From contig JBEBGB010000003.1 of assembly GCA_040081675.1 (NCBI GenBank), positions 1 to 48,340 of the forward strand: DNA of 48,340 nt, written 5' to 3'. Shown here one piece after another: positions 15,415 to 38,960 of this stretch. Within the stretch, counting starts at the first letter, position 1. The number at the start of each line of letters is the position of its first letter. A program made the translations under genes and the position numbers. Source of the stretch: Vicinamibacterales bacterium. Its GTDB lineage: Bacteria; Acidobacteriota; Vicinamibacteria; Vicinamibacterales; CAVVIG01. Below the pieces are notes generated by a model. That model was not told where the DNA came from. It searched no databases and saw nothing but the letters and a program-made list of their open reading frames with translations.

Positions 15415-16695
15415 CTAGAGTCGCCATACGCGCAGCCCGGCCTTGATCACCTCTGACCGCGCGTACGCGCTCTTCACGTCGGCGAACAGGCCACCCGCTA
15501 CGAGACGCTCCGCGAAAGTCGCCAGGCCCATCCCTTCGTACTCGCGGTGGGTCACAGCCGCCACCATCGCCGACGCCTTCGGCAGCTGATCCCAGGGGGT
15601 GAGGCTGACACCATACTCGTACTCGCAGGCACTCGGGTCGGCAATTGGATCGTGAACCCATACGCGGACCCCAAAGCTCTTAAGCTCTCGCACGACGTCG
15701 ATGACCTTGCTGTTGCGCAGGTCCGAACAGTTCTCTTTGAACGTGATGCCCAGCACGATGACGTCTGCTCCTTTCACGGGCAGGTCATGTCCGATCATTT
15801 GTTTGATCACCTGTTCGGCGACGTACTTGCCCATACCGTCATTGATGCGACGGCCAGCGAGGATCACCTGCGGCGTATAGCCGAGCATTTCAGCTTTGTG
15901 CGTCAAGTAGTACGGATCGACGCCGATACAATGCCCGCCCACGAGACCAGGCCGGAACGGCAGGAAGTTCCACTTGGTGCCGGCCGCCTCGAGCACTTCG
16001 TTCGTGTCGATGCCAATGCGATGAAAGATGAGCGACAGCTCGTTCATCAGCGCGATGTTCAAGTCGCGCTGCGTGTTCTCGATCACCTTGGCAGCCTCGG
16101 CGACCTTGATGCTGGTAGCCGGGTAGACTCCGGCGGTAATCACGGCACCGTACACTCCCGCCACGCGAGCCAGGGTTTCGGGGGTGTCGCCTGACACGAC
16201 CTTGGTGATCTTCGTGAGGGTGTGCCGCTTGTCGCCCGGGTTGATGCGCTCGGGACTGTAGCCGACGAAGAAATCCTTCTTCCACGTGAGTCCCGAGTGC
16301 TTCTCAATGAGCGGGACGCAAATTTCCTCGGTGGCGCCTGGGTAGACCGTGGATTCGAATACCACTGTTGCGCCGCGACTGATGTATCGCCCGACGCTCT
16401 CGGACGCCGCCACGAGAGGGCCCAGATCGGGCTGATGCGCTTTGTCCACGGGCGTGGGCACGGCCACGATGATGAAGTCGGCCGCAGCGATGACGCGCGG
16501 GTCCGTGCTGCACGTAAGGTGCTCGCTCGCCCTGAAATCATCGGGGCTCACTTCTCCTGTCGGGTCCACATTCCGCTCGTAGCAGGCAACTTTTTCGGCC
16601 GACAGGTCGAAGCCGAGCGTTCGGAACGTCTTGCCGAATTCAACGGCCAGTGGCAGACCCACATAGCCCAAACCAACGACAGCAATCGTATTCAT
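15415..16695 (-). CDS. tviB: UDP-N-acetylhexosamine 6-dehydrogenase (TviB/WbpO-like)
   Basis: GLGYVGLP, AVPTP, ESTVYPG, SPERINPG, KVIENTQRDLNIA, GLVGGHCIGVDPYY, FKENCSDLRNSK. Confidence 0.9.
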   Translation of the reverse strand: MNTIAVVGLGYVGLPLAVEFGKTFRTLGFDLSAEKVACYERNVDPTGEVSPDDFRASEHLTCSTDPRVIAAADFIIVAVPTPVDKAHQPDLGPLVAASESVGRYISRGATVVFESTVYPGATEEICVPLIEKHSGLTWKKDFFVGYSPERINPGDKRHTLTKITKVVSGDTPETLARVAGVYGAVITAGVYPATSIKVAEAAKVIENTQRDLNIALMNELSLIFHRIGIDTNEVLEAAGTKWNFLPFRPGLVGGHCIGVDPYYLTHKAEMLGYTPQVILAGRRINDGMGKYVAEQVIKQMIGHDLPVKGADVIVLGITFKENCSDLRNSKVIDVVRELKSFGVRVWVHDPIADPSACEYEYGVSLTPWDQLPKASAMVAAVTHREYEGMGLATFAERLVAGGLFADVKSAYARSEVIKAGLRVWRL

Positions 16696-17417
16696 GCAGG
16701 GCCTCGGCGGAAAGATGGCTGCGATACCTGGCGATGTCGTGTGTCACTGGCCGGGCGCTCTAACACGCGTCGACTCGCAACGCGCTGGTCAGCTCCTACC
16801 TGAAGTTCGAGCACGGACCCGTTCGACGGCTTGTAGTCCTTGGCCGCGGCCGCTTCGTCGAGCGTCCTACCCTCGAATGCTCCCACGAGCAGGCGGTTGA
16901 TACGCTGGTGCCCCACGACGAGAAACCGTGATCCTGCTGACAACGCAGGCTTCACGCGGGCCGCAAAGCGACACGCGCGAACCCACGCGTCGGCAAGACT
17001 CTCTCCGCCAAGTACGGGTGTGTGCAGATAATCGCGACCCAGCTTCAGCTTCGCCTCTCTGCGTGTCAGGCCGCTGAAGCTGCCGTAGTCGAACTCGACC
17101 AGATCGGGATCGATCTGCACGATGAGCCCGCGGCGGTGCGCCGTCGGCGCCGCGGTGTCGCGCGCACGAACGAGCGGGCTCGAGAAGATGGCATCGACGA
17201 ATTCGCCTTCCAGTTGCTGGCAGAGGAGCTGCGCCTGCTCCTGTCCGTCGCTGTCGAGCGGGATGTCGGCGCGGCCGAGTCTGCGATCTGCAAGGTTCCA
17301 ACTCGTTTGTGCGTGTCGGACGAGCAAGAGACGGCCACCCTTGTGCGCCTTAACCACAAGAGTGACTCGTGACTGGGATGTCGCCGGCGCTGAAGACACC
17401 TCGGCGACGTCTGGCAT
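16692..17417 (-). CDS. Histidine phosphatase (phosphoglycerate mutase superfamily)
   Basis: LVRHAQTSWN, SSPLVRARDTA, E.DYG.F.G, GES, VVGH; start uncertain. Confidence 0.85.
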   Translation of the reverse strand: MPDVAEVSSAPATSQSRVTLVVKAHKGGRLLLVRHAQTSWNLADRRLGRADIPLDSDGQEQAQLLCQQLEGEFVDAIFSSPLVRARDTAAPTAHRRGLIVQIDPDLVEFDYGSFSGLTRREAKLKLGRDYLHTPVLGGESLADAWVRACRFAARVKPALSAGSRFLVVGHQRINRLLVGAFEGRTLDEAAAAKDYKPSNGSVLELQVGADQRVASRRVLERPASDTRHRQVSQPSFRRGPA

Positions 17418-18447
17418 TGTCGTGAGCCTCCGGTGAGGCTGCGTGTCGGTAGTAGTCGCGATACCAGGCGACGAAGAGACGAACGCCCTCCTCCACCGGC
17501 GTCGACGGCGAAAACCCGGTCCACTCGGTCAGCTCTGACACGTCGGCACAGGTGGACGGAACGTCACCGGGCTGCAGCGGAAGCAGATTCTTCCGAGCGG
17601 ACCTTCCAATGGCCCGTTCGACGGCTTCGATGAAGTCCAACAGCCGCACTGGCTGATTGTTGCCGATGTTGAAGACCCTGTAAGGCGCCGATCCTGTGTG
17701 TGGAACAGGACGCATCGAATCAAACGATGGATCGGGCGTCGCGATTCGGTCCACCACACTGACTACTCCTTCGACGATGTCGTCCACGAAGGTGAAGTCA
17801 CGTGTCATGCGGCCTTCATTGAAGACATCGACCGGACGTCCTTCGAGGATCGCCTTCGTGAAGAGAAACAAGGCCATGTCAGGTCGTCCCCACGGCCCAT
17901 ACACGGTGAAGAAGCGAAGTCCCGTCGTCGGCAGACCGAACAGGTGACTGTAGCTGTGCGCCATGACCTCGTTCGCCTTCTTCGTGGCCGCATAGAGGCT
18001 CAGCGGATGGTCGACGTTGTGCGCCTCGTCGAAGGGCATTCGCGTGTTGCCGCCGTAGACGCTCGAACTCGAGGCGTACACCAGGTGCTGCACCTGATGC
18101 TGCCGACACCCCTCGAGCACGTTGCCGAATCCAACGAGGTTGCTGTCGATGTACGACTGTGGGTCGACGAGCGAATGGCGTACGCCGGCCTGCGCCGCGA
18201 GGTGGACGACCCGGTCGAACCGGTCGCCGGCAAACAGTGCCGCCATGTTCGAGCGGTCCGCAATGTCCATTCGGACGAAACGAAACCCCTCTTTCGGAGC
18301 CAACCTCGCTAGCCGCGCGGACTTGAGGCGCGGGTCGTAGTAGGCATTCAGGTTGTCGAGGCCGACGACCGTGTCGCCGCGCGCGAGTAACCGCTCGGCG
18401 ACGTGCATGCCAATGAAGCCCGCCGCGCCGGTAACGAGGATGTGCAT
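17350..18447 (-). CDS. NAD-dependent epimerase, UDP-glucuronate 4-epimerase type
   Basis: GAAGFIG, LAAQAGVR, ASSSSVYG, YAATKKANE, RFFTVYGPWGRPDMA, QPGDV; ATG 18447 with AGGAGA RBS. Confidence 0.92.
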   Translation of the reverse strand: MHILVTGAAGFIGMHVAERLLARGDTVVGLDNLNAYYDPRLKSARLARLAPKEGFRFVRMDIADRSNMAALFAGDRFDRVVHLAAQAGVRHSLVDPQSYIDSNLVGFGNVLEGCRQHQVQHLVYASSSSVYGGNTRMPFDEAHNVDHPLSLYAATKKANEVMAHSYSHLFGLPTTGLRFFTVYGPWGRPDMALFLFTKAILEGRPVDVFNEGRMTRDFTFVDDIVEGVVSVVDRIATPDPSFDSMRPVPHTGSAPYRVFNIGNNQPVRLLDFIEAVERAIGRSARKNLLPLQPGDVPSTCADVSELTEWTGFSPSTPVEEGVRLFVAWYRDYYRHAASPEAHDNARRRRGVFSAGDIPVTSHSCG

Positions 18448-18535
18448 GTGAGTACGCGCTCTCCTGATGATGTCGTTCTCGTACCGTCCCGCCACGACGG
18501 GACGGCACGAGCCGCACTGCGGGTTGTCGCCTGCA

Positions 18536-20707
18536 TCAATAGCGGAACAACCAGCTGACTTTGACGAACGCCTGCCTTCCAACAGAGCGGACGATGGGGT
18601 TCCAAGGCAACGGCACGTCGGCTCGCTCTGGCTCCAGCCGGTCGACGTAGCCGACATACAGGGCAGTGCCGGGATTCAGCTCGAGGGTGCCGAGGATATC
18701 GAGGCCCATCGGCTGCTTGCGCTTTACGGCGCTGAATACCGGATTCGGGTCCACGCGTTCGTAGTCGACGATGGCCCTGATGGACAGCGCGCGAGTGAAA
18801 TGCACGTTCAGCTTCGAGCGCAGGATGTCGTTGGTCAGCACCGTGCGAGAGCCGCCCACCTCACCCCGCTGGTAGAGATGCGTACGGAGGTAGGTTTCGG
18901 ACAACGCGACGTGACGCCCGGGCTTGAGCGACACCCCGACCTCGGCGGCCCGTCGGTCCACGAGGTGCGGCAGGCGACCTGCGGCAGGCTTGCGATTGAT
19001 GTCGGTCCCGATCTCGTACGCGGCCGCAATCGCCCACTGAGCCCGCTCGATCTCGACCTCCATCGTCGAGCGTGCTTTGTCGAAGTCGAGGCCGCCCACC
19101 GATTCGAAACTGCGGGCATGGTCGACGAGCACGGATGTCTGCCCCACGAACTCCATCTCGAACCGAGGTCGCGTTCGCCAATCGGTCAGCGCGTCTGCAT
19201 GATTCCAGATCAGATAGCCGTCGAACGTGGGACCGTACTTGACCAGCGGTCCGCCATCAGGCCGCCACTGGTAGGACACTTTGTGATCGACCTGTCTCAC
19301 GTCGACTCGTCGAATGAACCCCAGGGCCGCCTCGAAGTCTGGCGACAGGTCCGTGTACTGCGCGCTGATATCGAGGTGACGTGCGTCACGCTCGAGCGCC
19401 GCGAACATCGCCTTTCCGCTGGTGTGCGCTCCAGAGCGCGTCGTGTCGCTTCGCGCCAGCTGGCCGGCGACCGCCCACGTGTCGCCGATCGTCCAGCGTC
19501 CGTCCGCCGACACGACACGATTGGCATTGCCGGCTCCGGCAGCATCGCGCATCGTCGCCAGTGCTCCGATGTGCCCGGCTCGGCCGAACTCACGTCGAAC
19601 CGTTCCAACGAGGGCCGTCGCCGCGTCGGTGTCTGGCGTCTTTCGATCGTTCATCACCAGGCCCGCAGTCAACCACGACCCGGCCTTGCCGGTCAGCCTG
19701 GCGCCACCACCTGGATCGAGAATGCGTCGAGAGAAGAACGTTGGGACTGGGGTCGCGAAATAGCCGGCGTTCTCGACGAAGAAGGTGCGCTTCTCAGGGA
19801 ACAGCACCTCGAACCGCTCGTTGACGGTCACCTGCGGAGTATCGGATTCGACTTCGCTGAAGTCCGGATTGACCGTCGCGTCGAGCACGAAAGCGCTGCC
19901 CAGTCCGACCTTGGCGTCGATCCCCAGCCGGCGCGTCGAGTCGAAGGCGGCGTCAGCGTCCGCGCCGGTGCGAGCGTCTGCAAAGACGCCGTACGGCGTC
20001 ACCTGCAGGTTGGCACCTGGCGCGATGCGCTCGAAGCCGCGGGCGTCGGCGAACTGAGGAACGAATCCCTGCGCGCGCTTGGACACCAGCGGCCAGAACG
20101 ACTCCTCGTTGAGACGCTGGACCGTCCGCGAGAGTGCGATGCCCCAGGTCTGCGTCAGCTCGCCCGAGAATCGCAGGCTCCGAAACGGAATCGCCATCTT
20201 CACGGTGTAACCGAACGAGGTGAGCGTTGCCTCGCTGTACCACAACGTGTCGAAGCTGTCGTCGTCGTCCTGTCCCTCGGTCTTGATCGACTCGGACTGC
20301 ACGCCGAGCGGGTTGCTGGTGAACACGTACGCCCGGCGTCGATCGTGGAACGTGTCCAGGTACAGCGACACGCTGTCGTCGGCCTCTGCCCCCTCGCGGC
20401 GGCTCAAGCGAGCGCGAACTTTCTCTGGGTTGTCGATGCAGACGAAGACAGCGTAGAGGCGATCCTGGTCATACGACAGGTACGCGGTCGTGCCGAGCGT
20501 GGCGGGGCGGCCGTCGCGCGGCTCGCGCTGCCGGAACTCGGAGACCAGCCCGGGACGAGGGAGCGCCTCCGGCGAAGTGAAGGTGTCGAGCTCGGGTGCT
20601 GACGCCACGCGCGGAATCTGCACGCTGAGCGATTGCGCCGACGAGGGAGCCACGGAAGCCAGGGCCAGCAGCAGCGCGCCGCAGGCTCGCCACAATGCAG
20701 CGTTCAT
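18536..20707 (-). CDS. DUF5916 protein: CBM9-like domain plus probable outer-membrane beta-barrel
   Basis: Signal peptide, LDTFHD.R.AY.F..NP.GVQ, AIPFRSLRF, TVNPDFSEVESD, FPEKRTFFVE, C-terminal FVKVSWLFRY; ATG 20707 overlaps upstream stop. Confidence 0.85.
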   Translation of the reverse strand: MNAALWRACGALLLALASVAPSSAQSLSVQIPRVASAPELDTFTSPEALPRPGLVSEFRQREPRDGRPATLGTTAYLSYDQDRLYAVFVCIDNPEKVRARLSRREGAEADDSVSLYLDTFHDRRRAYVFTSNPLGVQSESIKTEGQDDDDSFDTLWYSEATLTSFGYTVKMAIPFRSLRFSGELTQTWGIALSRTVQRLNEESFWPLVSKRAQGFVPQFADARGFERIAPGANLQVTPYGVFADARTGADADAAFDSTRRLGIDAKVGLGSAFVLDATVNPDFSEVESDTPQVTVNERFEVLFPEKRTFFVENAGYFATPVPTFFSRRILDPGGGARLTGKAGSWLTAGLVMNDRKTPDTDAATALVGTVRREFGRAGHIGALATMRDAAGAGNANRVVSADGRWTIGDTWAVAGQLARSDTTRSGAHTSGKAMFAALERDARHLDISAQYTDLSPDFEAALGFIRRVDVRQVDHKVSYQWRPDGGPLVKYGPTFDGYLIWNHADALTDWRTRPRFEMEFVGQTSVLVDHARSFESVGGLDFDKARSTMEVEIERAQWAIAAAYEIGTDINRKPAAGRLPHLVDRRAAEVGVSLKPGRHVALSETYLRTHLYQRGEVGGSRTVLTNDILRSKLNVHFTRALSIRAIVDYERVDPNPVFSAVKRKQPMGLDILGTLELNPGTALYVGYVDRLEPERADVPLPWNPIVRSVGRQAFVKVSWLFRY

Positions 20708-21492
20708 GCGGACGCCTCCGCCGCTGTGGTCGCATCTGGCACGGGAGGCGACGTCGCGAGCGAGGCCGCCTCGACCAGCGACACGAACTGCACCATCGAA
20801 TGACGCCGGAGAGTGTCCAGCAGTGCCGAGACATCCTCGAGATCCAGATCGTCCATCACTGCGTGATGAAACAGGACGCCCGCAACCGGCCGGTTCGTCA
20901 AGACATCGGCACACGACGCGCCAAGCTGGTTCCGCGTGAGCCTGACGCCGCGCTTCTTGCCCGACCAGTCCACGTGCACCGGGCACTCACGAAGTCCGGC
21001 GACGCCGAGGACGCCTGCCGTGACATCTCTGGACAGCACCTCGACGCCCATCTCGACGAGCAGCGGACCCACCGCCTCGACACAGCGATTCCAAGGCGGC
21101 GTGAACACCGGGTCTACCGACGCACCGAACGCCTCGACCATGCGTGCGTGCCCTTGTGTGAGATCCATCCGCAGATCGTCGAGCGACCGCGACGCGCCGA
21201 ACTCGCACTTACGCCCAGTCGGCTCATGATTCATGTGCGCCCATCCGTGCTGATGAAACCCGAGGCGTGCGGGGTATGCGCGCCGGCGCTCCGTGAGCCA
21301 CTGCGCCCGCTCGCCAGTGAGTTCGGACGGGATCACGGCCAGAGCCAGGGGCACACCGTGCCAGGCGCACGTGTCCAACAGACCCGCCAGCCGCTCATCC
21401 GCCCAGCCCGCGTCGTCATCGCGCACGAACAGCGCGACCGGAACGTCTCGCGCGTCGAGCGCGCGGTGCACCGGGTCCAGCCAGCCGCTCAC
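20704..21492 (-). CDS. Polysaccharide deacetylase-like (CE4/NodB-like) protein
   Basis: FVRDDDAG, LAVIP, QHGWAH.NH, FTPPWNR, GVLFHH. Confidence 0.85.
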   Translation of the reverse strand: MSGWLDPVHRALDARDVPVALFVRDDDAGWADERLAGLLDTCAWHGVPLALAVIPSELTGERAQWLTERRRAYPARLGFHQHGWAHMNHEPTGRKCEFGASRSLDDLRMDLTQGHARMVEAFGASVDPVFTPPWNRCVEAVGPLLVEMGVEVLSRDVTAGVLGVAGLRECPVHVDWSGKKRGVRLTRNQLGASCADVLTNRPVAGVLFHHAVMDDLDLEDVSALLDTLRRHSMVQFVSLVEAASLATSPPVPDATTAAEASA

Positions 21493-22688
21493 CGGACCGC
21501 CTCCCCCGCGAACGCCCTTTGCGATCTGGCGGAGCGGCGAGACGCCAGGTCCGAGAGCAGGCGCAACGTCGTCTCGGCGCCGTTCATGTCGAGCGTCGGC
21601 CTGGCCGGCGTGAAGTCCAGCAGCTCACGAATCGCGCCCGCCAGGCGCTCGGGGGTGAGCTCTGTGGACGGGAGCGTCTCGAGCAGACCGCACTCGGCCA
21701 GGCGTGTGGCACGCGTGGTCTGCTCATTCTCACGCCCCTCGGCGAACGGCACGACGAGCGCCGGCACGCGAGCGCGCAGCAGGTCGAGCGCCGTGTTGTA
21801 GCCGCACTGACTCACCGAGGCGCGGGCAGACGTGAGCAGTGGTACCAGGCTCGGCACCTGCGGCAGAACCGTGAGCCCTCGACCCTTCGTCGCCGCTGTC
21901 TGCAGATCCGCGACGACGGCAGGCGGTGCGAACGGTCCGGCCACGATCGTCGTCGGCAGCTGCAGCACGGGCCAGTTGATGGCGTGCGCGGCAACGGCCG
22001 CGCGGAAGAGCGGCTCGCCCACATGTCCCCCGCCGGCGGACACCAGGACACCGGACCTGTCGACCGACGGTTGCTCAACGAAGTCGCGCGTCAGAAAGCC
22101 CGTGTACTCGACCGGCGTGGCGAGCGGAACGGAGGGGCGGAAGGTGTCCTCCAGCCGCGCGAAGATCGGATCGGTGTGCGCCATCACCAGATCGAAGAAA
22201 CGGTGGCAGAGGTCACGGGCGCGATCGTCGAACTCCTGCTGGCTCCGGCGCGCGGTCACCAGCAGGTCGCGAAGGCTGCACACAATGAGCGGACGGTCTG
22301 CCCCGCGGGCGTGAGCCGCCGTGAGCAGCGGGATCAGCTCGCACTCGAACTTCCGACGCCCGAACGGGAACAGCTCGATCAGCACCACGTCCGGCTGCCT
22401 GGCGTTCAGCAGCGCAATCATCTGATCGCGCCGTCGTTGCAGCGCCTCGTCCACCGTGAGACCGGGCGTGAGCGACACCAGCGTGGCGTCCTCTCGCATG
22501 CCGAGCGGGGGCAGGTCGATGCGCTCGACGGCGTCCGGAAACGGCAGCCCGGCCGGCACGGGGCCGCCGTTCAGAAAGACGATGTCGAAAGCGTGCGACA
22601 GCCGCTCGGCCATGGCCGATGAGCGGACGAAGTGACCCATGCCGATCGAGTGCTGGCAGTAGAAGAAGAGTTTCATCGTGGGCACCAT
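21489..22688 (-). CDS. GT-B glycosyltransferase, COG4671-like (GT28 C-terminal domain)
   Basis: YCQHSIGMGH, IELFPFGR, SLRDLL, SAGGG.VG, QCGYNT, ENEQ..RA. Confidence 0.88.
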   Translation of the reverse strand: MVPTMKLFFYCQHSIGMGHFVRSSAMAERLSHAFDIVFLNGGPVPAGLPFPDAVERIDLPPLGMREDATLVSLTPGLTVDEALQRRRDQMIALLNARQPDVVLIELFPFGRRKFECELIPLLTAAHARGADRPLIVCSLRDLLVTARRSQQEFDDRARDLCHRFFDLVMAHTDPIFARLEDTFRPSVPLATPVEYTGFLTRDFVEQPSVDRSGVLVSAGGGHVGEPLFRAAVAAHAINWPVLQLPTTIVAGPFAPPAVVADLQTAATKGRGLTVLPQVPSLVPLLTSARASVSQCGYNTALDLLRARVPALVVPFAEGRENEQTTRATRLAECGLLETLPSTELTPERLAGAIRELLDFTPARPTLDMNGAETTLRLLSDLASRRSARSQRAFAGEAVR

Positions 22689-30585: not shown

Positions 30586-31675
30586 ACGCCGCCGCCAGTG
30601 TCTCGGTGAACCGGCGCGCGCAGACCGTGACGTCGTAGCGACGCTCGACGAGCTGGCGACCGCCTCGCGCGATCGCTCGCGCAAGGTCCGCACGCCCAGC
30701 AACGGTTTCGATGGCAGATGCCAGTGCTCGCGCATCGCCCGCGCGTACGAGCAGGCCTGTTTCGCCGTCGACGATCGCCGACTCGATGGCCCCGGCGCGG
30801 GTAGCCACCACCGGTCGTTCCGACGCCAGCGCTTCGAGGAGGACGTTGGGCAGCCCGTCTCTGTCGCCGGCTTCGTCGACAACCGATGGAACCGCCACGA
30901 GATGTGCGGCGGCGTAGAGCGCCGGCAGGTCGGCGTGGCTGGCACTGCCATGCCACGTGACGCGAGGGCCGATACCGAGCGAGTCCGCCATCGAGCGAAG
31001 CGAGGCGCCGTCGGGGCCGTCGCCCACGATGCACAGCGTCCACGGCACGCGGACCCTGGCAATCGCGTCGAGCAGGACGTTGAATCCCTTCTTGGGAACC
31101 AGTCGACCGACGGCGAGCACGCGCAGCTCACCGTCCGCAGGCAGAGGCGACGGTGCAAAACGCGTCAGGTTGACGCCGTGAGGAATCAGCGCTGGGGTGA
31201 CACCGAGTCTGGCGATCTCCACCTGCGCGTCCGCGTTGCAGACCACCACACACCGCGCGCCAGCCGCTCGACGACCGAGCTCTGGCCGCGGCACCGTTCG
31301 GGCATCCTTGGCATGCGCCGAGAAGCCGTAGGGCACGCCCAATCGTTCAGCGGCGCACGCGGCAACCGCCGCCGGGTGATGCGCGAAGTAGCCGTGAACC
31401 GCGCGCGGTCGGCGGGAGCCCAACTCTTCGACAATCTCACTCGCCTGGTCTTCAATTCTGCCGCTCTTCAGCACGCGAACGCGCGGCGACAGCCGGGCGG
31501 CATCTGGATGTGGCGCAAGGCCGTCGCCGGGCTTGGTGGCGAACGCTGCCATGAGCAGCCCTGCCTGCTCCAAGGCCGCCAGCTCGGGCAGCGCAAACGT
31601 TTCCGAGCGCCGGGGAAATCCGCTGAGGACCACGACAACTCCTGACTCGCGTGGGCTCCGCTGGTCAGTGGACAT
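30578..31675 (-). CDS. GT4 glycosyltransferase (WcaL-like)
   Basis: FPRRSETF, VHGYFAH, SAHAKD, VGRLVPKKG, GDRDGLPNVLLEALA. Confidence 0.92.
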   Translation of the reverse strand: MSTDQRSPRESGVVVVLSGFPRRSETFALPELAALEQAGLLMAAFATKPGDGLAPHPDAARLSPRVRVLKSGRIEDQASEIVEELGSRRPRAVHGYFAHHPAAVAACAAERLGVPYGFSAHAKDARTVPRPELGRRAAGARCVVVCNADAQVEIARLGVTPALIPHGVNLTRFAPSPLPADGELRVLAVGRLVPKKGFNVLLDAIARVRVPWTLCIVGDGPDGASLRSMADSLGIGPRVTWHGSASHADLPALYAAAHLVAVPSVVDEAGDRDGLPNVLLEALASERPVVATRAGAIESAIVDGETGLLVRAGDARALASAIETVAGRADLARAIARGGRQLVERRYDVTVCARRFTETLAAAYD

Positions 31676-32885
31676 GGACGCCGGCTCCCGTTGCGCGCGT
31701 CTTCGCCGCGATCGGACGCATCGTTGGTTGTTGATCCGGGCTCAGCAGGTTCGACACGAGCCGAGGCACCTGTTCGAGCGCGGTGAAGCGCAGCGTCGCG
31801 GGCCGCAGCGACGTCTTGACGGTCGCCATCCAGCGTGTGAGCGCCTGAGAAGAAAGGTCGCGCTGCGCGAGAACGTCGACGAGTCCGATTTCAGCGAAGC
31901 GGGTTGCTCGAATGGTCTGTTCACGCCGGGGAGCTTCGCGCGGCACGAGCAGCGCAGGTTTCCGATAGGCGAGGATCTCGCAGACACTGTTGTAGCCCGC
32001 CATACCGACCACGCGTGTCGCGCGCTCGACGAGCGAGGCGCCGTCGTCGGTGAAGTCGATCAGATGGAAGTCGTCTCGTGTCGCGGCAACGGCGCGCACG
32101 TGCTTCAATGCCGGCTCCGGGCAGAACGGCCCGGTCAGCAGCACGCCCGTCTCCCCGCCTGGAAAGGACGACTCCGAGAACGCGAGGGCCAGTTCCGTAC
32201 CGTCCTGACCTCCGCCCGCCAGGCACAGGGTGAAGGGACGCGCGAGCGCAGCACCCGTCGAAGCAGCGGCCTCGCTGTCGTGGGGCGACCGCCGATCGAG
32301 GTAGCCCACGAATCGCACGCGATGCCGGGTCGACTCGGGGAAGTGGCACTCTTCCGACAGGTCGTAGACCGACGGGTCGCCGTAGATCCAGACCTGGTCG
32401 TAGTACCGCTCGATGCTCGCGTGGTGGCCGGCGGCGGCCCACTCGCGCGCCACGACCGACGGCTCGTCGAGGATGTCGCGGAGGCCGAGCACGGTCTTGA
32501 TCCGTCGTCCCATGCGCAGAGCGGCCAGTGTGGGCTCCAGTTCGCCGAGTGCGCCGAGGGGGACGTTGTCGACAATCAGCAGGTGGGGGTCGAATCGCTC
32601 GAGCGCCGCGCGGATGGTCTGGGAGCGAAGGCCGACGATGTGATCCAACGGGCACGACAGGTGGCGGGCGCTGTACGCGCCAGTCATCTGGTGCTTGCCG
32701 AGTGCGGGCAGCGTGATGCAGTCGATGCCCGCAGGCATGTGGAATGCACCGCCCAAGTGCGTCCCCGAGATGAGCAGAATCGACACGTCGACGTGACGGT
32801 CGACGATCGCACGGGCCAGCGCGAGATTGCGCCGTACGTGGCCCAACCCCATCGTGTCATGCGAGTAGAAGGCGATTCTGTGCAC
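31665..32885 (-). CDS. GT-B glycosyltransferase, COG4671-like; first gene of glycan operon
   Basis: YSHDTMGLGHVRR, LGLRDILD, AGGGQDG, MAGYNSVCE, EQ.IRA; GTG 32885 preceded by AGGAGG (32890-32895). Confidence 0.9.
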   Translation of the reverse strand: MHRIAFYSHDTMGLGHVRRNLALARAIVDRHVDVSILLISGTHLGGAFHMPAGIDCITLPALGKHQMTGAYSARHLSCPLDHIVGLRSQTIRAALERFDPHLLIVDNVPLGALGELEPTLAALRMGRRIKTVLGLRDILDEPSVVAREWAAAGHHASIERYYDQVWIYGDPSVYDLSEECHFPESTRHRVRFVGYLDRRSPHDSEAAASTGAALARPFTLCLAGGGQDGTELALAFSESSFPGGETGVLLTGPFCPEPALKHVRAVAATRDDFHLIDFTDDGASLVERATRVVGMAGYNSVCEILAYRKPALLVPREAPRREQTIRATRFAEIGLVDVLAQRDLSSQALTRWMATVKTSLRPATLRFTALEQVPRLVSNLLSPDQQPTMRPIAAKTRATGAGVHVH

Positions 32886-32951: not shown

Positions 32952-33004
32952 GCTGGTTCTAAAGGGCTCGCCGCGAGCGAGGAAATATAGGGAACCGCCG
33001 ATTT
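32952..33004 (-). promoter_or_regulatory. Candidate ECF-sigma promoter, copy 1 (glycan operon)
   Basis: AAAT-N9-CCTATATTTCC-N13-GCCCTTTAGAACCAGC; same blocks and spacing as 35236-35288. Confidence 0.75.
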
Positions 33005-33060
33005 CCGAAACGGGTCTACGCGCGATGCGGTTCGCACCCTGCTGGCGCACGCGACCACAA

Positions 33061-33114
33061 CAGAGTGCATGCTGGTACGACGCGCGTTGTCAGAGGCAGG
33101 TCAAGGGGATGTCA
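33061..33114 (-). promoter_or_regulatory. Three 11-bp-period TGACA direct repeats plus CACTCTG element
   Basis: Plus-strand TGTCA 33088, GGTCA 33099, TGTCA 33110; CAGAGTG at 33061-33067, 20 nt away; same layout as 38834-38898. Confidence 0.65.
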
Positions 33115-33120
33115 AAACAT

Positions 33121-33230: not shown

Positions 33231-33234
33231 TGTG

Positions 33235-34611
33235 CTATCGCCGCCTGGAACTGCTGTTGAGCGCTTTGGGAAGATCAACGCGCCCAGCGCCAAGACCGCT
33301 GACCGGCACGGCGTCCTGCGACAGGTCTGTGATGGCGTGGCTCAGCGACAGTTTCCTGAACACCTGTACTTGGAGCGCCACGGCACCCGACAAGAGCGCC
33401 GTGCTGAACGATGTGCCCGACACTGCAGCGTAGAAGCCACCTGGAAAACTGGTAACAACCGCCTCGCCTGGCGTGCCGAGACGGACGGGCGACACACCGT
33501 AGTTCGAGAACACGCTCAGAGTGTCGAGCGTGGTGGTCGAGCCGGCGCCGATTGCATGCGAATCGCCCGCCGGGAAGCGCACGAGGGTCTGCCCGTCGTT
33601 GCCGGCAGCGGCCACCGGAATCGCGTTGAACTTCTGCGCGTAGTTCAACGCTCGAGCGAGCTCGTTCGATTTCTCCGGCATGCTGAAACTCATGTTGATG
33701 ACGCGCGCCCCGTGGTCCACGGCGTAGTAGACCGCCTGCACGATGTCCGATAGCTGTGAGGTGCCGTCCGCACGGAAGGCCTTCAGCGGCATGATGCGGG
33801 CGGTTGGCGCGACGTAGTGCACGAGCCCGGCCACCATGGTCCCGTGTCCAAAGGCCGGCGGCAATGACTCCAGAATGGCGCCGACCGACTGATTCAGCAG
33901 CGCCGAGGTGGAGGTGTTGACCTGCTGGATTCGCAGCTGTTCCAGCACCGCGCCGACCGACTGCTCGAGGACGGCACCGACGGACTGATCGAGGTCGGCG
34001 ATGTCCGACACGGTGCCGGGCAGATTGCGCGTGAAGTCGTATCCGGGAACGACCAGACCCTGCAGCAACGGATGGTTGGCGTCGACGCCCGTGTCGATAA
34101 TCGCCACGACCGAGTTACCGGTTGCCATGGCTTGTGCGGCTGGCAGACGCAGGATTCGTCCGGCAGCCTGAGCGGCGTAGCTCCGTGGGACGGTCCTCCC
34201 GAAGTAGCTCACGGGTGTGTTGGTGCTGAATGCCTCCAGCACAGCGCCGACCGACTGGTTCAGGAGAGGACTCGGCGTACGCTCTGCGACATCGACGCGT
34301 TTGTCGCGCTCGAAGTTCTCGACATCCAGGTCGGCTTCCACTTCCAGCTCGATCTCGACATTGGTCTTGCTCGCTGGTACTGCCACCAGCACGATCGGCG
34401 CCTCAGCGTCGTTGCGGAGTACCTCGACGACGATGAGGCTGTGTCTGGTCAGCACGGTCTCGAGGAGACCGTCTGCGGCTCGCAGCATGTACCGCCGGGC
34501 CTCCTGGGCCTGACCCGACGCCGCGCTGAGAAGTCCCAGCAGGCACGCCACAGTCAGCCGAATGACGCGAAGACCGGCGATGTGTCTGGTGTGTCGCATG
34601 TACATGCTCAC
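33235..34611 (-). CDS. Secreted S8 (subtilisin-like) serine protease with four QSVGA(V/I)LE repeats
   Basis: Signal peptide ending GQA, I9-like prodomain, triad IIDTG / GHGT / SGTSFS, oxyanion AAAGN. Confidence 0.92.
   Translation of the reverse strand: MSMYMRHTRHIAGLRVIRLTVACLLGLLSAASGQAQEARRYMLRAADGLLETVLTRHSLIVVEVLRNDAEAPIVLVAVPASKTNVEIELEVEADLDVENFERDKRVDVAERTPSPLLNQSVGAVLEAFSTNTPVSYFGRTVPRSYAAQAAGRILRLPAAQAMATGNSVVAIIDTGVDANHPLLQGLVVPGYDFTRNLPGTVSDIADLDQSVGAVLEQSVGAVLEQLRIQQVNTSTSALLNQSVGAILESLPPAFGHGTMVAGLVHYVAPTARIMPLKAFRADGTSQLSDIVQAVYYAVDHGARVINMSFSMPEKSNELARALNYAQKFNAIPVAAAGNDGQTLVRFPAGDSHAIGAGSTTTLDTLSVFSNYGVSPVRLGTPGEAVVTSFPGGFYAAVSGTSFSTALLSGAVALQVQVFRKLSLSHAITDLSQDAVPVSGLGAGRVDLPKALNSSSRRR
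33868..34257 (-). repeat. Intragenic peptide repeat QSVGA(V/I)LE x4
   Basis: Copies at 34234-34257, 33964-33987, 33940-33963, 33868-33891; differences mostly synonymous. Confidence 0.95.
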
Positions 34612-35234
34612 TCGGGGCGAGGTTCGCTCAAAGGAAGCCTGATGCTCCGGCGGTGGTCCTCGACCGGGATGTGGAGCTCGAGCCCCTCGTTGGGTTCGTA
34701 CTCCATCTGGAACTCACCGAACTCGTTGCTCAGGCCTCTGGCAACGACGCGACGTCCGCGTGTGACGAGGATCGGCACGTGAGCCGGCGGCGGATCGGGG
34801 ACACGACGGTTCGACACCTGACCGACGAGTGACACGCGAGGCGCGCCCGACAGCTGCTCGAACTTCAGGTGGATCGTGAAGTCGCCAGCCTCGTACAGCG
34901 TCTGACGGTTCATCTCCTCGACAGGACCGCGGACACCCTCCGCGGCCGGCATGCCGACGCTGCCGAACACCAGGCGAGCGGCCAGCGCAGGAAGTGACAG
35001 CGTTCGCTCGGGCCGATGCAGTGAAAAGGCCGCCAGGGCAAACCGGACCAGGTGAACGGGTGGTTCGACGGCGGTATCCTGCCTGGCCGCAGCCGCAACC
35101 GCATCCAGGCGCCGAATCAGTGCGTCGCAGGAGAGGCAGCCGTCCGCCAGATGCGTGCGCATGCCAGCTTCGAGCTCCGGCGCAGCCACTCCGCGGACGA
35201 AGTCGACCCAATGAACGATGTCGAAATGGCTCAT
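34608..35234 (-). CDS. Putative soluble Zn-finger anti-sigma factor with C-terminal beta-rich domain
   Basis: N-terminal HLADGCLSC (ZAS-like Hx4CxxC), no TM helix, linker LVFGS...EGVRG, C-terminal SNEFGEFQM; ATG 35234 overlaps CHAT stop. Confidence 0.7.
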   Translation of the reverse strand: MSHFDIVHWVDFVRGVAAPELEAGMRTHLADGCLSCDALIRRLDAVAAAARQDTAVEPPVHLVRFALAAFSLHRPERTLSLPALAARLVFGSVGMPAAEGVRGPVEEMNRQTLYEAGDFTIHLKFEQLSGAPRVSLVGQVSNRRVPDPPPAHVPILVTRGRRVVARGLSNEFGEFQMEYEPNEGLELHIPVEDHRRSIRLPLSEPRPE

Positions 35235-38185
35235 TGCTGGTTGTATAGGGCCCGAGTTCGGCCCGGAAATATAGGCATCGCAGTATTTTTTCGCCGCCCG
35301 CGGGGCGTTGGTGCCTTCGTCGGCAGAGCGGCAGCCCGGCCGGTGGCCTGACCGACAAGCGTAAATGGTGCCCAGTGATAGGGATGCGGGAATCGAGCGC
35401 GCAGGGAGCGCATCGCCGTCTGCACGGCCACGCCCGTTGGCTGACCCTGGGCGAGGTTGGCGTAGAAGGCGGCCATGAACTCTGCGGTGCTCAAGTCGTC
35501 CACCTGCCACATCGTCAGCAGGAGTGAGCGTGCGCCCGCGTAGAGGAACCCGCGCATCAACCCGACCAATTCGTCGCCGCCCATGACCGCGCTCAGGCCG
35601 GTACCGCAGCCGCTGAGCGTGACCAGATCGGCATCGAGCGTCAGACCGTAGGTGTCAGCGAGTGAGAGATCCCCATCGGCCAGTCGAATGGACGACAGCA
35701 TCGGATTGTCCCGCCGGAAGTACCCGTGGGTTGCGATGTGCACGTAGCGCGACACCGCACCGAGCTCACGCAGACACGCCCGGGTCGCCATCGTCCCGGT
35801 GCGGAGGGTTGGCGCCGGAAGGCACTGCGCCACCTGCGTCGCCTCGTCGCCGATATGCGGGGCGAAGCCATCCGCAAGCGCGAGTACCAGGCTGTCGTGG
35901 TGAGGCGACGGCGGCCTGATCTGGCACAAACGGAACACGCTGGCGCTCGGCGCGTACGAGATGGCGTACGCGTCGATCAACGCGCCACCTGCGTCCTCCA
36001 GCGCGTGAAACGGCAGATAGTGCAGCACTCCGTGCGGCACGACCACCAGGTGCTCTGCACGCAACAAGGGGCGAACTGGCGCAACGAGCTGATCGTAGAG
36101 CTCGCGCAGATGTCGTCGTGTGGCCGCCGACAGGACTGACGCGAAGGTTCGCACGTAGTCTGGCCCGAGCTGGAATTTCGCCAGCTGGAATCGGAGCAGT
36201 TGGAGGGTTCGCGTCACCTGCGTGGTGGTGGCCGCCAGTGGTGACACGCGAACCAGGTCGGGGCCGACCACGCACGCGTAGATCTGGTCGCGTGCGACGA
36301 AGAACTCGAGGAGCATCGTGTCTGGCGGCAGCGCATCCTGGATGTCGGCAAGGCTCGCCGATGTTCCGGTGTGCAGCGATGCCAGGCCTCCGTCGGATTC
36401 GCCAAGGCGGCTCAGCGCCGCCGAAAGCTGCCGCTCGCGGCCGTCGGCCGCTGCCCTCATCTGCCGCAGGCGCTCGTCGTCGAGCGAGGACTGCATCACG
36501 GCCTGCGCCATTCGACGCTGGCACGCGTGCAGCTGCTGCCTGAGCGGGCCGACCAGATCGGGCGTGTGCGTGCCAGCAGCGCGTGGCGTCAGCTCCGAGG
36601 CGCGGAACGCCAGCAACTCGACCAGGCCGCGCGATTTCGCGTCCTCGATGAGACGGAATGTCTCGGCTTCTCTACGCGAGCTGTCATGGCGACCGATAGC
36701 CAGACGAATCAGCCCCTCGTAGACAGCCAGCTTGTCGCCGAGGAATGGCGCCTTCAGATCCTCGGCCGCAATCTGTGCACGCAGCCGCTCGAGCGCCTGC
36801 CTGGCTCGGGTCAACGAGGCTTCGGCCGCGCTCGTGTCGCCGCGCGCCTCGGCCACTTCCCCGCACACGAGGTCCACCTGCCAGGCGAGTGACGATACTC
36901 GAACCTGGGCCAGCGCGGCCTCGGCGGCTCGGGCGCCGCGCGCCGCCTCTCGCAGGTCGCCTCGTCGAAGGGCGATCCGGGTTCGCAACACCTGCCATCG
37001 CACGCGAGTCGAGGGGGACATCGGTCGACGTTCCGCGCCTGCCATCAGTCGACGCGCTTGAGCATCGCGTCCCAGCTGAGAGCAGACGATGGCCCGACCG
37101 AGGTCCACGGTTGCGAGCCAGGGCTGGTTGCGGTCGGCCTGATAGAGCGCCCGCGCTCGAGCGAAGGTCGCCAGCGCCGCCACACCGTCGCCGTGTCTGG
37201 CCAGGGCGGTGGCCAGAAAGACGAGTGACTTCGCCCGCTCGTACCGCAGGCCCAAGGCGGTGAATCCTCTGGCCGCCGCTTCGGCGAGACGACGTGCCCC
37301 AGGTAGATCGTTCAACTCGAGGCAGACCTCGGCTTCGTCCATGTCGCACAACGCGCGGTGATATCGATCGCCGAGTTCCTCGCTCCGGGCACGCGCCACG
37401 GCGTAGGCCGTCAGCGCCTGTGTGTATCGACCGCACAGGAAATGCAGGTAGGCAATGTTGTAGTCGGCGGCCGCCACCAGCATCGTGAGCGCATGTGTCT
37501 CGCTGAACATGCGAACCTTGGCGTACGCCTCGAGCGCGTCGTCGAAGGCATTGAGACTGGTCAAGCACACGGCGATGTTGCGCATCGCCTCGGCCGCGTC
37601 CTGGTGCTGATCGTGGGCTCGAAGTGCCGACTCGGCGCGCCGGTAGCAGGCGAGCGCCTGCTTGAATCGATCCTGCCTGAAATGAAGGTTGCCGACGTTG
37701 CTCTCGAGACGCGCGAGGCGGAGGTCGTCGTCTCGTCGACGAAAGATCGCGCGCGCGCGCCTCGCCCAGCGTTCGGCCTTGTCGTAGCGCCCCAGGTGCA
37801 CCAGCGTGTGAATGGCGCCACTGTAGGTGATGGCCTTCTGCAGTCGGTCGCCCTCAGCGTCGAACTGGGCGATCGCGTCGGTGTAGCGGGCGAGCGCCAG
37901 ACGAAAGCGAGAGCCGAGGGCGAGGCCGTGCCCCTCGGCCCGAAGTGCACGACCTCGGGCAAGCCGATCGCGCGAACGGTCCGCGAGCAAGCGCGCTGTT
38001 CCGGCCAGGCGCTGCCCGCGCCCCAAATCGATCCGCGACTGCCTCGGCACGTCGTCGGCGAGCGCGATCGCCCATTGTGCGGCGTCACGTGTGTGAACGG
38101 TGCGAGCCCACGCTGTCGCCGCGGCCGCGTTCGCCCGCGACAGCCGATCGAGCAGCCGTCGCGACGGCATCGCCGCAACCGCCAT
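35231..38185 (-). CDS. TPR-CHAT caspase-like cysteine protease
   Basis: Long TPR array; EDAKSRGL, VVPHGVLHYLPFHAL, YAPSAS, catalytic HIATHG and LSGCGTG, WQVDD, HPYHWAPF. Confidence 0.93.
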   Translation of the reverse strand: MAVAAMPSRRLLDRLSRANAAAATAWARTVHTRDAAQWAIALADDVPRQSRIDLGRGQRLAGTARLLADRSRDRLARGRALRAEGHGLALGSRFRLALARYTDAIAQFDAEGDRLQKAITYSGAIHTLVHLGRYDKAERWARRARAIFRRRDDDLRLARLESNVGNLHFRQDRFKQALACYRRAESALRAHDQHQDAAEAMRNIAVCLTSLNAFDDALEAYAKVRMFSETHALTMLVAAADYNIAYLHFLCGRYTQALTAYAVARARSEELGDRYHRALCDMDEAEVCLELNDLPGARRLAEAAARGFTALGLRYERAKSLVFLATALARHGDGVAALATFARARALYQADRNQPWLATVDLGRAIVCSQLGRDAQARRLMAGAERRPMSPSTRVRWQVLRTRIALRRGDLREAARGARAAEAALAQVRVSSLAWQVDLVCGEVAEARGDTSAAEASLTRARQALERLRAQIAAEDLKAPFLGDKLAVYEGLIRLAIGRHDSSRREAETFRLIEDAKSRGLVELLAFRASELTPRAAGTHTPDLVGPLRQQLHACQRRMAQAVMQSSLDDERLRQMRAAADGRERQLSAALSRLGESDGGLASLHTGTSASLADIQDALPPDTMLLEFFVARDQIYACVVGPDLVRVSPLAATTTQVTRTLQLLRFQLAKFQLGPDYVRTFASVLSAATRRHLRELYDQLVAPVRPLLRAEHLVVVPHGVLHYLPFHALEDAGGALIDAYAISYAPSASVFRLCQIRPPSPHHDSLVLALADGFAPHIGDEATQVAQCLPAPTLRTGTMATRACLRELGAVSRYVHIATHGYFRRDNPMLSSIRLADGDLSLADTYGLTLDADLVTLSGCGTGLSAVMGGDELVGLMRGFLYAGARSLLLTMWQVDDLSTAEFMAAFYANLAQGQPTGVAVQTAMRSLRARFPHPYHWAPFTLVGQATGRAAALPTKAPTPRGRRKNTAMPIFPGRTRALYNQQ
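35236..35288 (-). promoter_or_regulatory. Candidate ECF-sigma promoter, copy 2 (anti-sigma/S8), inside the CHAT 3' end
   Basis: AAAT-N9-CCTATATTTCC-N13-GCCCTATACAACCAGC followed by A-ATG of the anti-sigma gene. Confidence 0.75.
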
Positions 38186-38829
38186 CAGATCCCTCGCGCT
38201 TTCAGCGCCGATTCGAGCTTCTTGAGACAGCGACCGCGAATGAATCCGATTGAGCCGACGGCCAGGCCGAGGCGGGCGGCAACTTCGGTGTAGGGCACCG
38301 GTTCCTCGGTGAAGAACAACATCCGTACGAGCTCCTGACAGCGTCCGGGCAGGTCAGCGACAGCATCATGGACTGACTGGTCGCGCTGCGCCTCCTCGAT
38401 GATCCGGGCGGCGTTCGGGTCGTCATCGACAACGGCGTCCCCGACGGATTCAGCTCCGACCCACCCAACCTCGCGCTTCGCACGCTGCTTCGCCTTGAGC
38501 GACTTGTGCTGCGCCACGCTCACGAGCCAACCCTTGAGCGCTTCCGGTTTGCGCAGCTTTGGCAGTTCGGTGACGAGCTCGACGCAGACCGCCTGGAAGA
38601 TGTCGCCCGCGCCGTCGTGCGTGGCACCGTACTTCAGGGGAATGGAATAGATCAGGCGTTTGTACCGGTTGACGATGAGAGCCCACGCCGCTTCGTCGCC
38701 TTGGAGGCACCGGCGCACGAGCACCGCATCGGGCACCTCGGCCGGCGACGCCTCCGCGCGCAGCGGCGCCACCGGCTCGGTGGTGGCCATCGGCGGCCCG
38801 GTTCGGCGCATCTGCTCACTGGGCATCAC
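38185..38829 (-). CDS. ECF RNA polymerase sigma-70 factor
   Basis: Region 2 LVRRC..GDEAAW..IV.RY..LIY, DIFQ, LKGWL; region 4 LPGRCQELV, YTEVAARLG..VGSIGFIRGRCL; TGATG overlap with CHAT; start could be ATG 38826 or 38790. Confidence 0.93.
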   Translation of the reverse strand: MMPSEQMRRTGPPMATTEPVAPLRAEASPAEVPDAVLVRRCLQGDEAAWALIVNRYKRLIYSIPLKYGATHDGAGDIFQAVCVELVTELPKLRKPEALKGWLVSVAQHKSLKAKQRAKREVGWVGAESVGDAVVDDDPNAARIIEEAQRDQSVHDAVADLPGRCQELVRMLFFTEEPVPYTEVAARLGLAVGSIGFIRGRCLKKLESALKARGI

Positions 38830-38833
38830 TCCA

Positions 38834-38898
38834 CAGCGTGGCGAAGCGCAGAGCGCGGCGTGTCAAGCGAATGTCAGGAAGATGTCAAGAAAGTGTCA
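38834..38898 (-). promoter_or_regulatory. Four 11-bp-period TGACA direct repeats plus CACGCTG element upstream of ECF sigma
   Basis: Plus-strand TGTCA at 38861, 38872, 38883, 38894; CAGCGTG at 38834-38840, 20 nt away. Confidence 0.75.
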
Positions 38899-38960
38899 AA
38901 AAGGCGGCGACACTCTCTCGACCATTCATCGCGAATCTGAACGAACGCTCGGCCTGCGCA

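Follow-up and report, generated by a model that had tools for sequence, protein, structure and literature searches.

The stretch of DNA analyzed here (the window, 48,340 nucleotides; contig C587 of a 6.58-Mb Vicinamibacterales metagenome-assembled genome in 1366 contigs) holds a four-gene cassette for a sigma factor of the extracytoplasmic function (ECF) type, a TPR-CHAT cysteine protease, a 208-residue protein resembling zinc-associated anti-sigma (ZAS) factors, and a secreted S8 subtilase. We read the cassette as a cytoplasmic sigma/anti-sigma switch with two proteases, to which a glycan synthesis and export operon is attached as output in this genome, and we regard the chances of that complete picture as about even. 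The unit and the operon have rare control elements in common, which indicates that the unit probably switches the operon on. Judged from sequence comparisons among related loci, both the architecture of the switch and its wiring to glycan genes appear well grounded; two key biochemical steps, cutting of the anti-sigma factor by CHAT and transcription of the glycan operon by the ECF, we infer.

A Conserved Four-Gene Module

From 38829 down to 15415, every accepted gene lies on the minus strand. The cassette reads ECF sigma factor (38185..38829), TPR-CHAT protease (35231..38185), ZAS-like protein (34608..35234), and S8 subtilase (33235..34611). The first-pass annotation, made from the letters alone, had described these four genes as joined by start/stop overlaps, and the junctions bear this out: ECF and CHAT overlap by 1 nt (TGATG), CHAT and ZAS by 4 nt (ATGA), and ZAS and S8 by 4 nt (GTGA; alternatively, S8 starts at an ATG 3 nt past the stop). 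It had also placed 13 glycan genes directly behind the cassette. Thirteen such genes do follow on the same strand, from 32885 down to 15415, but they do not abut S8: 349 nt separate the S8 stop from the GTG at 32885 that opens the first of them (g5), a codon preceded by AGGAGG.

A pattern scan of one genome per species returned 38 loci with a relative of the 208-residue protein, 37 of them labeled as Acidobacteriota lineages and one as Verrucomicrobiia. Three loci from genomes of the same family bring the set to 41, and seven further loci from the same phylum bring it to 48. The gene-neighborhood search that the first-pass annotation had proposed finds ECF, CHAT, ZAS, and S8 together in 39 of the 48, comprising 32 of the 41 in the window's gene order and all seven of the further loci. 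Two other orders occur, ZAS-S8-Opp-ECF-CHAT (L048) and ECF-ZAS-CHAT-S8 (L051-L054). Five of the nine incomplete loci (L020, L034, L038, L040, and L042) are cut by a contig end. The remaining four lack genes although the sequence is present; L004 and L041 hold ZAS and S8 only, and L006 and L009 hold ECF and ZAS only. The four genes are a real conserved module. Its spread is patchy: it occurs in six of 61 close relatives (the window genome included), in one of 11 other species of the genus, and in 21 of 401 genomes sampled across the phylum (E <= 1e-10).

The usual neighbors of the module are the peptide importer Opp and HD-GYP genes, and the glycan link is the exception, with glycan genes behind S8 in three genomes. 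Opp is adjacent in 32 of 48 loci (29 of 41 plus three of seven), in three different arrangements. In the 29 it reads OppD-OppF-OppB-OppC-OppA on the same strand as the module. It precedes ECF in 28 of them and follows S8 in L037, and frequently the stop codon of OppA touches or overlaps the start of ECF; six of the 12 loci without Opp are cut on that side. A gene with an HD_5 domain lies behind S8 in 26 of 48 loci (25 of 41, plus L050), and the copy in L023 has both HD and GYP motifs.

The 208-Residue Protein Is Very Probably an Anti-Sigma Factor

By its domains and its length of 214 residues, the first protein of the cassette is an ECF (group IV) sigma-70 factor. It matches Pfam Sigma70_r2 (9e-08; 32.2 bits, above the cut-off of 24) and TIGR02937 (1.3e-17; 64 bits against a cut-off of 42.9), and Sigma70_r4 is found below its cut-off (7.6e-4; 19.4 bits against 24.1). 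Three of its cysteines (C41, C164, and C201) are invariant among 22 aligned homologues, and a fourth, C82, is at least 90% conserved.

The 208-residue protein has no match to a Pfam or NCBIfam family. A profile search collected 5221 cluster representatives with E <= 0.001; 185 relatives are of near length. In the alignment, conservation is 90% or higher at four potential zinc ligands, H3, H28, C33, and C36. The motif in the window is H28-x4-C33-x2-C36 plus H3, against the textbook H-x3-C-x2-C, and some homologues have the x3 spacing. Pfam zf-HC2 was not detected in the window protein and is recorded for one of 120 listed homologues. When the family profile was compared with the PDB, the two top matches were the anti-sigma factors RslA (3hug_B, E 0.013) and RsiW (5wuq_C, E 0.023); both are weak, and both alignments span the His/Cys motif. 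In an AF2 model (mean pLDDT 86.8), residues 6-73 form four helices and residues 108-201 a beta-sandwich; the linker that joins them (92-107) is the lowest-confidence stretch. A Foldseek search of this model against the PDB gave nothing at E <= 0.001, only generic beta-sandwich matches with ChrR at rank 9 and a poor TM-score, and was not used.

Modeling of the ECF:ZAS pair had been suggested in the first-pass annotation as a check on the switch. Against a best of 0.06 among three controls, the complex, with each protein entered as an alignment, scored 0.81; this mark is attained by 58 of 80 solved complexes and two of 110 mismatched pairs and, since sigma/anti-sigma complexes have already been solved, shows likeness to them and is no proof of binding. 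Contacts coincide to at least 99% among the three runs, with a partner pLDDT no lower than 81. The predicted contacts join ZAS residues 6-77 to both sigma domains, sigma-2 (ECF residues 41-89) and sigma-4 (149-214), so that a helical domain would grip the co-encoded ECF in the manner that defines class I anti-sigma factors. Taking the conserved ligands, the profile matches, and the models together, the 208-residue protein is very probably the anti-sigma factor of the adjacent ECF. C41 and C82 are among the ECF residues modeled in contact with it. The conservation of the cysteines, two of them at this predicted interface, suggests that the sigma factor itself holds a metal or redox site.

Two side observations concern the family at large. 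A predicted 677-residue metagenomic protein (P0223, a single member) fuses an anti-sigma part (residues 1-209) to an S8 protease that is 40% identical to the window S8 and has its repeats (described below). If the fusion is real, the S8 signal segment would tether the protein to the membrane; the fusion may just as well be an artifact of gene calling or of a frameshift. The anti-sigma family can also occur several times in one genome of the phylum (seven matches in G340, three in G107), which indicates that the module can multiply within a genome.

A CHAT Protease as the Candidate Trigger

The second gene encodes a 984-residue protein with Pfam CHAT (PF12770; 1.9e-59, 201.9 bits against a cut-off of 24) and TPR_12 (2e-21) domains. 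The first-pass annotation had called its His/Cys dyad intact, and H820-G821 and S858-G859-C860 are indeed invariant in 21 aligned homologues; domain and dyad together make it a clan CD/CHAT protease. Homologues end near G945, and the last 39 residues in the window form a non-conserved tail. The overlap between CHAT and ZAS arises because the CHAT frame runs 39 codons through DNA that is intergenic in homologues, and in the window this tail reads through a control element (35236-35294) described below. Neither CHAT nor the sigma factor nor the anti-sigma protein has a hydrophobic segment.

We propose that the TPR part of the soluble CHAT protein receives a signal in the cytoplasm and that the protease then cuts the anti-sigma factor in its linker, at or near R102. 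This arginine is invariant in every alignment, including 11 of 11 diverse members, and lies in the flexible stretch 92-107. Its invariance and its position in a disordered linker make it a candidate cleavage site for a separase-like enzyme.

The anti-sigma factor might instead be inactivated by, for example, thiol oxidation or zinc loss, as other ZAS proteins are, with no gating by CHAT; CHAT, S8, and Opp would then form a peptide-foraging or protein-turnover regulon, or CHAT would have the sigma factor or something else as its substrate. The conserved zinc-ligand residues of ZAS and the cysteines of the sigma factor suit this explanation, as do the two loci (L006 and L009) that hold ECF and ZAS and have no CHAT gene, and a nutritional peptide-uptake unit would likewise combine Opp with a secreted protease. 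We nonetheless judge it unlikely. In the 39 complete loci the CHAT gene adjoins the sigma or the anti-sigma gene or is flanked by both, and it stays in their company through three rearrangements. Cleavage of an inhibitor to free a sigma factor has published precedents in Csx29/Csx30 and CalpL/CalpT, and an invariant arginine in a disordered linker is what would be expected of a separase-like cleavage site.

CHAT proteases also operate in defense linked to type III CRISPR systems, and the PADLOC models give weak matches to BovA for CHAT (3.2e-05) and to a generic subtilase for S8 (1.3e-16). An anti-phage or abortive-infection system built on the protease would fit these matches, and we consider it very improbable. 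CHAT scores 41 bits against the Csx29 model NF041237, whose cut-off is 300, and so falls outside that family. The first-pass annotation had found no cas genes, and none was seen among the 39 window open reading frames scanned, a set that does not cover all small ones; nor was a CBASS or other defense gene seen among the annotated genes of the window and the related loci. The neighbors are instead genes for peptide transport, cyclic-di-GMP, and glycans.

Two Rare Elements Shared by the Cassette and the Glycan Operon

The first-pass annotation had reported two different DNA motifs that each occur in both the cassette and the glycan operon. Both motifs are real, and both are rare in the genome. 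The first is a three-block element found upstream of the ZAS gene. Its family consensus is an A/T-rich GAAWWTTTT block followed, after about 9 nt, by CCTATATTTTT and, 14 nt further on, by CCCTTATT. It is alignable in 34 of the 38 loci of the initial scan; L040 is cut, and the pattern is unmatched in L015, L025, and L041. When a weight matrix was derived from the 34, it recovered the element where it should lie in three loci outside that set (L015, 20.1 bits; L043, 34.4; L044, 35.4), and L042 has a 13.4-bit site upstream of ZAS. Where the gene order is ECF-ZAS-CHAT-S8, similar sequence can be recognized by eye between ECF and ZAS in three of four loci. In L049 (G447:C43, 7585-9385) the element lies right behind CHAT and the ZAS start is about 1.8 kb further on, with an apparent insertion between them.

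Two copies occur in the window, both on the minus strand. Copy 1 (35236..35294) of this element, whose family blocks may be abbreviated as A/T-rich, CCTATATTT, and CCCTWTA, stands directly before the ZAS start codon and, under a matrix made from relatives only, is the top match in the whole genome at 19.1 bits. Copy 2 (32952..33010) lies at least 67 nt upstream of the first glycan gene and matches copy 1 in register: 29 of 40 bases are identical between 35236-35275 and 32952-32991, a score reached by none of 1000 dinucleotide-preserving shuffles. The 11-mer core CCTATATTTCC occurs exactly twice in the 6.58-Mb genome, once in each copy. The full-length weight matrix missed copy 2, because the first block has a different offset there. 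With a two-block matrix, copy 2 is the top match in the genome at 16.8, a score that is meaningful only locally, since the site falls in the one intergenic stretch that adjoins the cassette.

In related loci, second copies of the element precede other genes: in L015 a receiver-domain gene, in L005 a PilZ gene, and in L025 the Opp operon. The closest parallel to the window is L042, from genome G027 of the same family, where a second copy of 25.6 bits lies right behind S8 and ahead of a GT28-like glycosyltransferase gene. The cassette proteins of L042 are only 39-48% identical to those of the window, and the layout of element, ZAS, S8, element, and sugar gene is thereby repeated in a same-family relative. 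Genes that follow S8 or a second copy include those at L005:8140-8457 (minus strand, PilZ), L015:12127-12570 (plus strand, a single-domain receiver), and L023:12193-12903 (plus strand, HD-GYP). The PilZ and HD-GYP genes behind S8 or behind second copies suggest that cyclic-di-GMP signaling is the common output in most lineages.

The second motif consists of TGACA-type direct repeats with an 11-nt phase on the minus strand. Four repeats (38862..38898) end 33 nt before the ECF start codon, and three (33089..33114) lie in the intergenic region between S8 and the glycan operon. In the window the pattern TGAC-N7-TGAC-N7-TGAC is found solely at these two places, with no match in 100 shuffles; the whole genome has three sites, against one match for a reversed-pattern control. 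The third site, on contig C802, lies right behind a gene pair for a response regulator of the OmpR family (L045:3917-4699) and a histidine kinase of HAMP/dCache-like type, and ahead of a gene whose secreted product has InlB B-repeat (Flg_new_2) domains; the whole stretch is L045:3917-8182. Direct repeats at an 11-nt phase are the usual type of site for OmpR-type regulators. Given this site type and the OmpR context on C802, the repeats look like a response-regulator site rather than an ECF promoter, and the C802 pair, the ECF cassette, and the glycan operon may form one regulon. A search of 32700-39100 against Rfam, with E values up to 1 allowed, gave zero matches, from which we conclude that neither motif is a known RNA family. 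Consensus scans of the same interval for sigma-70 promoters and for intrinsic terminators found none of either. Other repeats in the window (for example, 23235 with 38930, and 16063 with 34303 and 38380) are coding DNA of 63-76% identity and were deemed chance, and a 14-mer pair at 38981 and 33009 (two mismatches) was discarded, its arrangement differing between the two sites.

In the mechanism that we favor, the freed ECF would transcribe from the three-block element before the anti-sigma gene, giving feedback on the anti-sigma factor and S8, and in the window genome it would also transcribe the 13 glycan genes from copy 2. The second step is proposed because the element is rare and shared and because one relative has the same layout. 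An OmpR-type response regulator acting on the TGACA repeats would be a second input, probably controlling both the ECF gene and the glycan operon.

The same two motifs could also mean that the cassette and the glycan genes are parallel outputs, co-regulated by the OmpR-type regulator through the TGACA repeats and by another factor through the three-block element, with the ECF not transcribing the glycan genes at all. This is the strongest competitor, and we rate it as unlikely. It gains from the position of the sole other genomic TGAC-N7 triple right behind the OmpR-family regulator and HAMP kinase pair, from the phasing of the repeats, and from the three-block element itself, in which we recognize no ECF-type consensus and whose first block is often palindrome-like (GAAA..TTTC), as would suit a dimeric repressor. 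It loses by the constancy of that element, which accompanies the anti-sigma gene in every gene order, including the loci with only ECF and ZAS (L006 and L009). Such constancy is easier to reconcile with a site that the ECF reads than with the site of an unlinked factor. The TGACA pattern, for its part, is found in none of 44 related loci and cannot explain a design common to the family.

A Repeat-Bearing Secreted Protease and a Possible Peptide Signal

The last gene of the cassette encodes a secreted subtilase (Pfam Peptidase_S8, 1.2e-33). Its Asp-His-Ser triad stands in family order (D171, H254, and S399) and is invariant in 28 sequences; an AF2 model shows an I9-like propeptide at residues 38-105, and a single N-terminal hydrophobic, signal-like segment covers residues 10-32. 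These are the features of an S8 subtilase. Between the catalytic Asp and His the protein carries four copies of an 8-residue unit, QSVGAVLE or QSVGAILE. At least two copies of an 8- to 9-residue unit (2-4, tandem or near-tandem) are present at this position in 37 of 46 homologues. The units are identical or nearly so inside one protein and specific to the lineage, as in QSTAAILD, QHTAAMLD, QETTPILD, and QRTVAVLD. In the window model the repeat loop has a pLDDT of 42-57, and a further copy lies at the junction of propeptide and mature enzyme; in the window, L038, and L004, this junction copy is the loop unit of its own lineage. The loci with the order ECF-ZAS-CHAT-S8 (L051-L054) have neither S8 repeats nor an adjacent Opp, a co-absence that represents two clades and not independent cases.

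The signal for the switch would most likely be a peptide, since Opp is co-directional with the module in most relatives and S8 is secreted. S8 might even carry its own signal: the enzyme would cut the units out of their exposed loop, the Opp permease of the operon would import them, and the TPR part of CHAT would bind them, whereupon CHAT would cleave the anti-sigma factor. We think this unlikely. If it held, such a self-signal loop would amount to protease-based peptide quorum sensing in Acidobacteria, with cyclic-di-GMP turnover (HD-GYP, PilZ) or, in the window genome, a surface glycan as its outputs.

The Glycan Operon and Observations against the Proposed Mechanism

The glycan genes, all on the minus strand, mostly overlap by 4-11 nt. 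Eleven of their 12 junctions are overlaps or gaps of at most 45 nt, and the twelfth, before the epimerase gene, is a gap of 88 nt. The operon begins with a glycosyltransferase with a GT28 C-terminal-like domain (g5, 31665..32885; Glyco_tran_28_C 6.9e-08) and two GT4 glycosyltransferases (g6, 30578..31675, Glyco_trans_1_4 3e-34; g7, 29200..30585, Glycos_transf_1 3.8e-40). These are followed by an ABC exporter with fused membrane and ATPase domains (g8, 27437..29203; ABC_membrane 3e-31, ABC_tran 1.9e-30) and a heparinase II/III-like protein (g9, 25425..27440; Hepar_II_III_C 2.9e-42, Hepar_II_III_N 8.3e-26). Next come two APH-family kinase-like proteins (g10, 24025..25428, APH 1.6e-18; g11, 22734..24032, APH 2.2e-07) and a second GT28 C-terminal-like glycosyltransferase (g12, 21489..22688; Glyco_tran_28_C 5.2e-09). 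The 262-residue product of g13 (20704..21492) has no match in Pfam, NCBIfam, or PADLOC, and g14 (18536..20707) encodes a DUF5916-domain protein with a signal-like N terminus (DUF5916 1.2e-14; CBM9_1 below cut-off). The last three genes encode an NAD-dependent sugar epimerase/dehydratase (g15, 17350..18447; Epimerase 1.2e-56), a histidine phosphatase (g16, 16692..17417; His_Phos_1 1.3e-37), and a member of the UDP-glucose/GDP-mannose dehydrogenase family (g17, 15415..16695; three Pfam domains, 1e-30 to 1.7e-20). The remainder of the window appears unrelated, with a Ser/Thr kinase, pyruvate kinase, an amidase, NamZ, and a MutS-like protein.

Homologues of g5 lie behind S8 in L004 and L042. In L004 a UDP-sugar dehydrogenase gene comes first and the g5-like transferase follows; in L042 the GT28-like match is 31% identical and has no Pfam match. 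For the heparinase-like gene g9, the 11 other species of the genus offer no close homologue; the best match among 60 relatives is 38% identical, in G029. The first-pass annotation had proposed co-occurrence of cassette and glycan cluster as a check. Glycan genes stand behind S8 in a pair of related loci, one of them (L042) also linked by the element; the link is rare, and in G029 the two are unlinked.

Several observations weigh against the mechanism that we favor. Glycan genes follow S8 in just two of 41 loci (L004 and L042), and the GT4/heparinase-like/APH/GT28 cluster of G029 (37-40% identity) is on a different, 9.5-kb contig from the cassette. The window has no adjacent Opp, and the Opp-type genes elsewhere in its genome are 37-45% identical to the cassette-linked ones. 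Both window copies of the three-block element deviate from the family consensus; a reversed-genome control reaches 17.8 with the two-block matrix, exceeding the score of copy 2; and the element is not known to fit any ECF -35/-10 consensus, so that any two of its three blocks might be the -35 and -10. The TGACA repeats offer an alternative route to co-regulation of cassette and operon. Finally, R102 is equally invariant in L006 and L009, loci that have no CHAT gene. Conservation of this residue as a function of an adjacent CHAT gene therefore does not discriminate, and the cleavage-site reading is only a lead.

Comparison with Known Systems

ECF sigma factors are a major route of bacterial signaling, and groups with no recognized anti-sigma factor are open problems. 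The closest match in gene context is ECF54, a group defined in Actinobacteria (PMC8999054; PMC7826278). On the strength of a neighborhood that conserves CHAT, subtilase, and carboxypeptidase proteins, proteolytic control has been proposed for it (PMC8999054), and the group is described as having no putative anti-sigma factor (Casas-Pastor et al., PMC7826278). The module resembles ECF54 by gene context alone, that is, by its neighborhood of CHAT, subtilase, and carboxypeptidase-type proteins. It differs in that the "carboxypeptidase-like" protein is here modeled as an anti-sigma factor. The CarboxypepD_reg domain (PF13620), found in three of 120 listed ZAS homologues, probably explains the label. 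The link to Opp, the cis element, and the variable outputs go unmentioned in the available ECF54 text. The first-pass annotation had known of no description of this circuit with a glycan output. That holds for experiment, since our literature searches returned no experimental study of an ECF/CHAT/ZAS/S8 module, though published ECF54 descriptions may overlap with it; it does not hold for the ECF/CHAT/subtilase context, which is already in print. An ECF54-type context is thus suggested to have an anti-sigma factor after all, hidden in a protein outside any Pfam family.

In the Craspase system of type III-E CRISPR, the TPR-CHAT protease Csx29 cleaves Csx30, an inhibitor of the ECF-like CASP-sigma (PMC10028731). 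The systems share a soluble TPR-CHAT protein, inhibitor cleavage proposed to relieve a sigma factor, and sigma sites (here putative) in the system's own locus. Here, no Cas7-11, crRNA, or cas genes were seen among the annotated window open reading frames, so the association with Cas7-11, Csx30, and Csx31 that marks Csx29 is missing. The inhibitor resembles a class I anti-sigma domain of the zinc type with a beta-sandwich attached, and the activator would probably be a peptide and not target RNA.

DdvA/DdvS of Myxococcus xanthus likewise joins a zinc-binding anti-sigma domain, placed on sigma-2 and sigma-4, to a TPR-CHAT part proposed to start destruction of the anti-sigma factor (PMC11506125). 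In DdvA the TPR-CHAT part is fused to the anti-sigma domain and lies in the periplasm, its active site is incomplete, release depends on RseP, and the output is a CBASS/CRISPR island (PMC11506125). The module shares the TPR-CHAT protease and, as modeled, a zinc-type anti-sigma domain on both ECF sigma domains. Its protease, in contrast, is separate and cytoplasmic, there is no sign of a membrane step, and glycan or cyclic-di-GMP genes would be the outputs. A DdvA-like polypeptide would unite ZAS, a transmembrane helix, and a periplasmic TPR-CHAT; here the genes are separate and encode no hydrophobic segment. In the CalpL/CalpT/CalpS and SAVED-CHAT/PCaspase cascades, signal-activated proteases cut an anti-sigma-like protein or a sigma factor (bioRxiv 10.1101/2023.06.23.546230). 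Those cascades are activated by cyclic oligoadenylates from type III CRISPR systems, whereas no SAVED domain or cyclase was seen here.

Peptide signaling of the RRNPP type in Firmicutes combines import of a peptide by Opp with a cytoplasmic TPR receptor. Most related loci have a gene content that would suit such a scheme, with a peptide that is secreted or processed, Opp as importer, and a TPR protein in the cytoplasm (Opp adjacent in two-thirds of them and not in the window; a TPR region in CHAT), a likeness that is a lead only. The receiver here would be a protease in place of a transcription factor or phosphatase, the organisms are Acidobacteriota, and no separate peptide gene was identified. 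The links to Opp, a secreted protease, HD-GYP, PilZ, and glycan genes point to a peptide-triggered surface or matrix switch in Acidobacteriota, a phylum in which, to our knowledge, little signaling has been characterized experimentally.

The kind of system is therefore known, and its gene context has been noted before. What appears to be new is the anti-sigma identity of the 208-residue protein, the link to a peptide importer, a conserved element whose output genes change, and a protease that bears repeats. Compared with the systems above, the module would transfer regulated anti-sigma proteolysis entirely to the cytoplasm, by means of a caspase-like enzyme and outside CRISPR defense.

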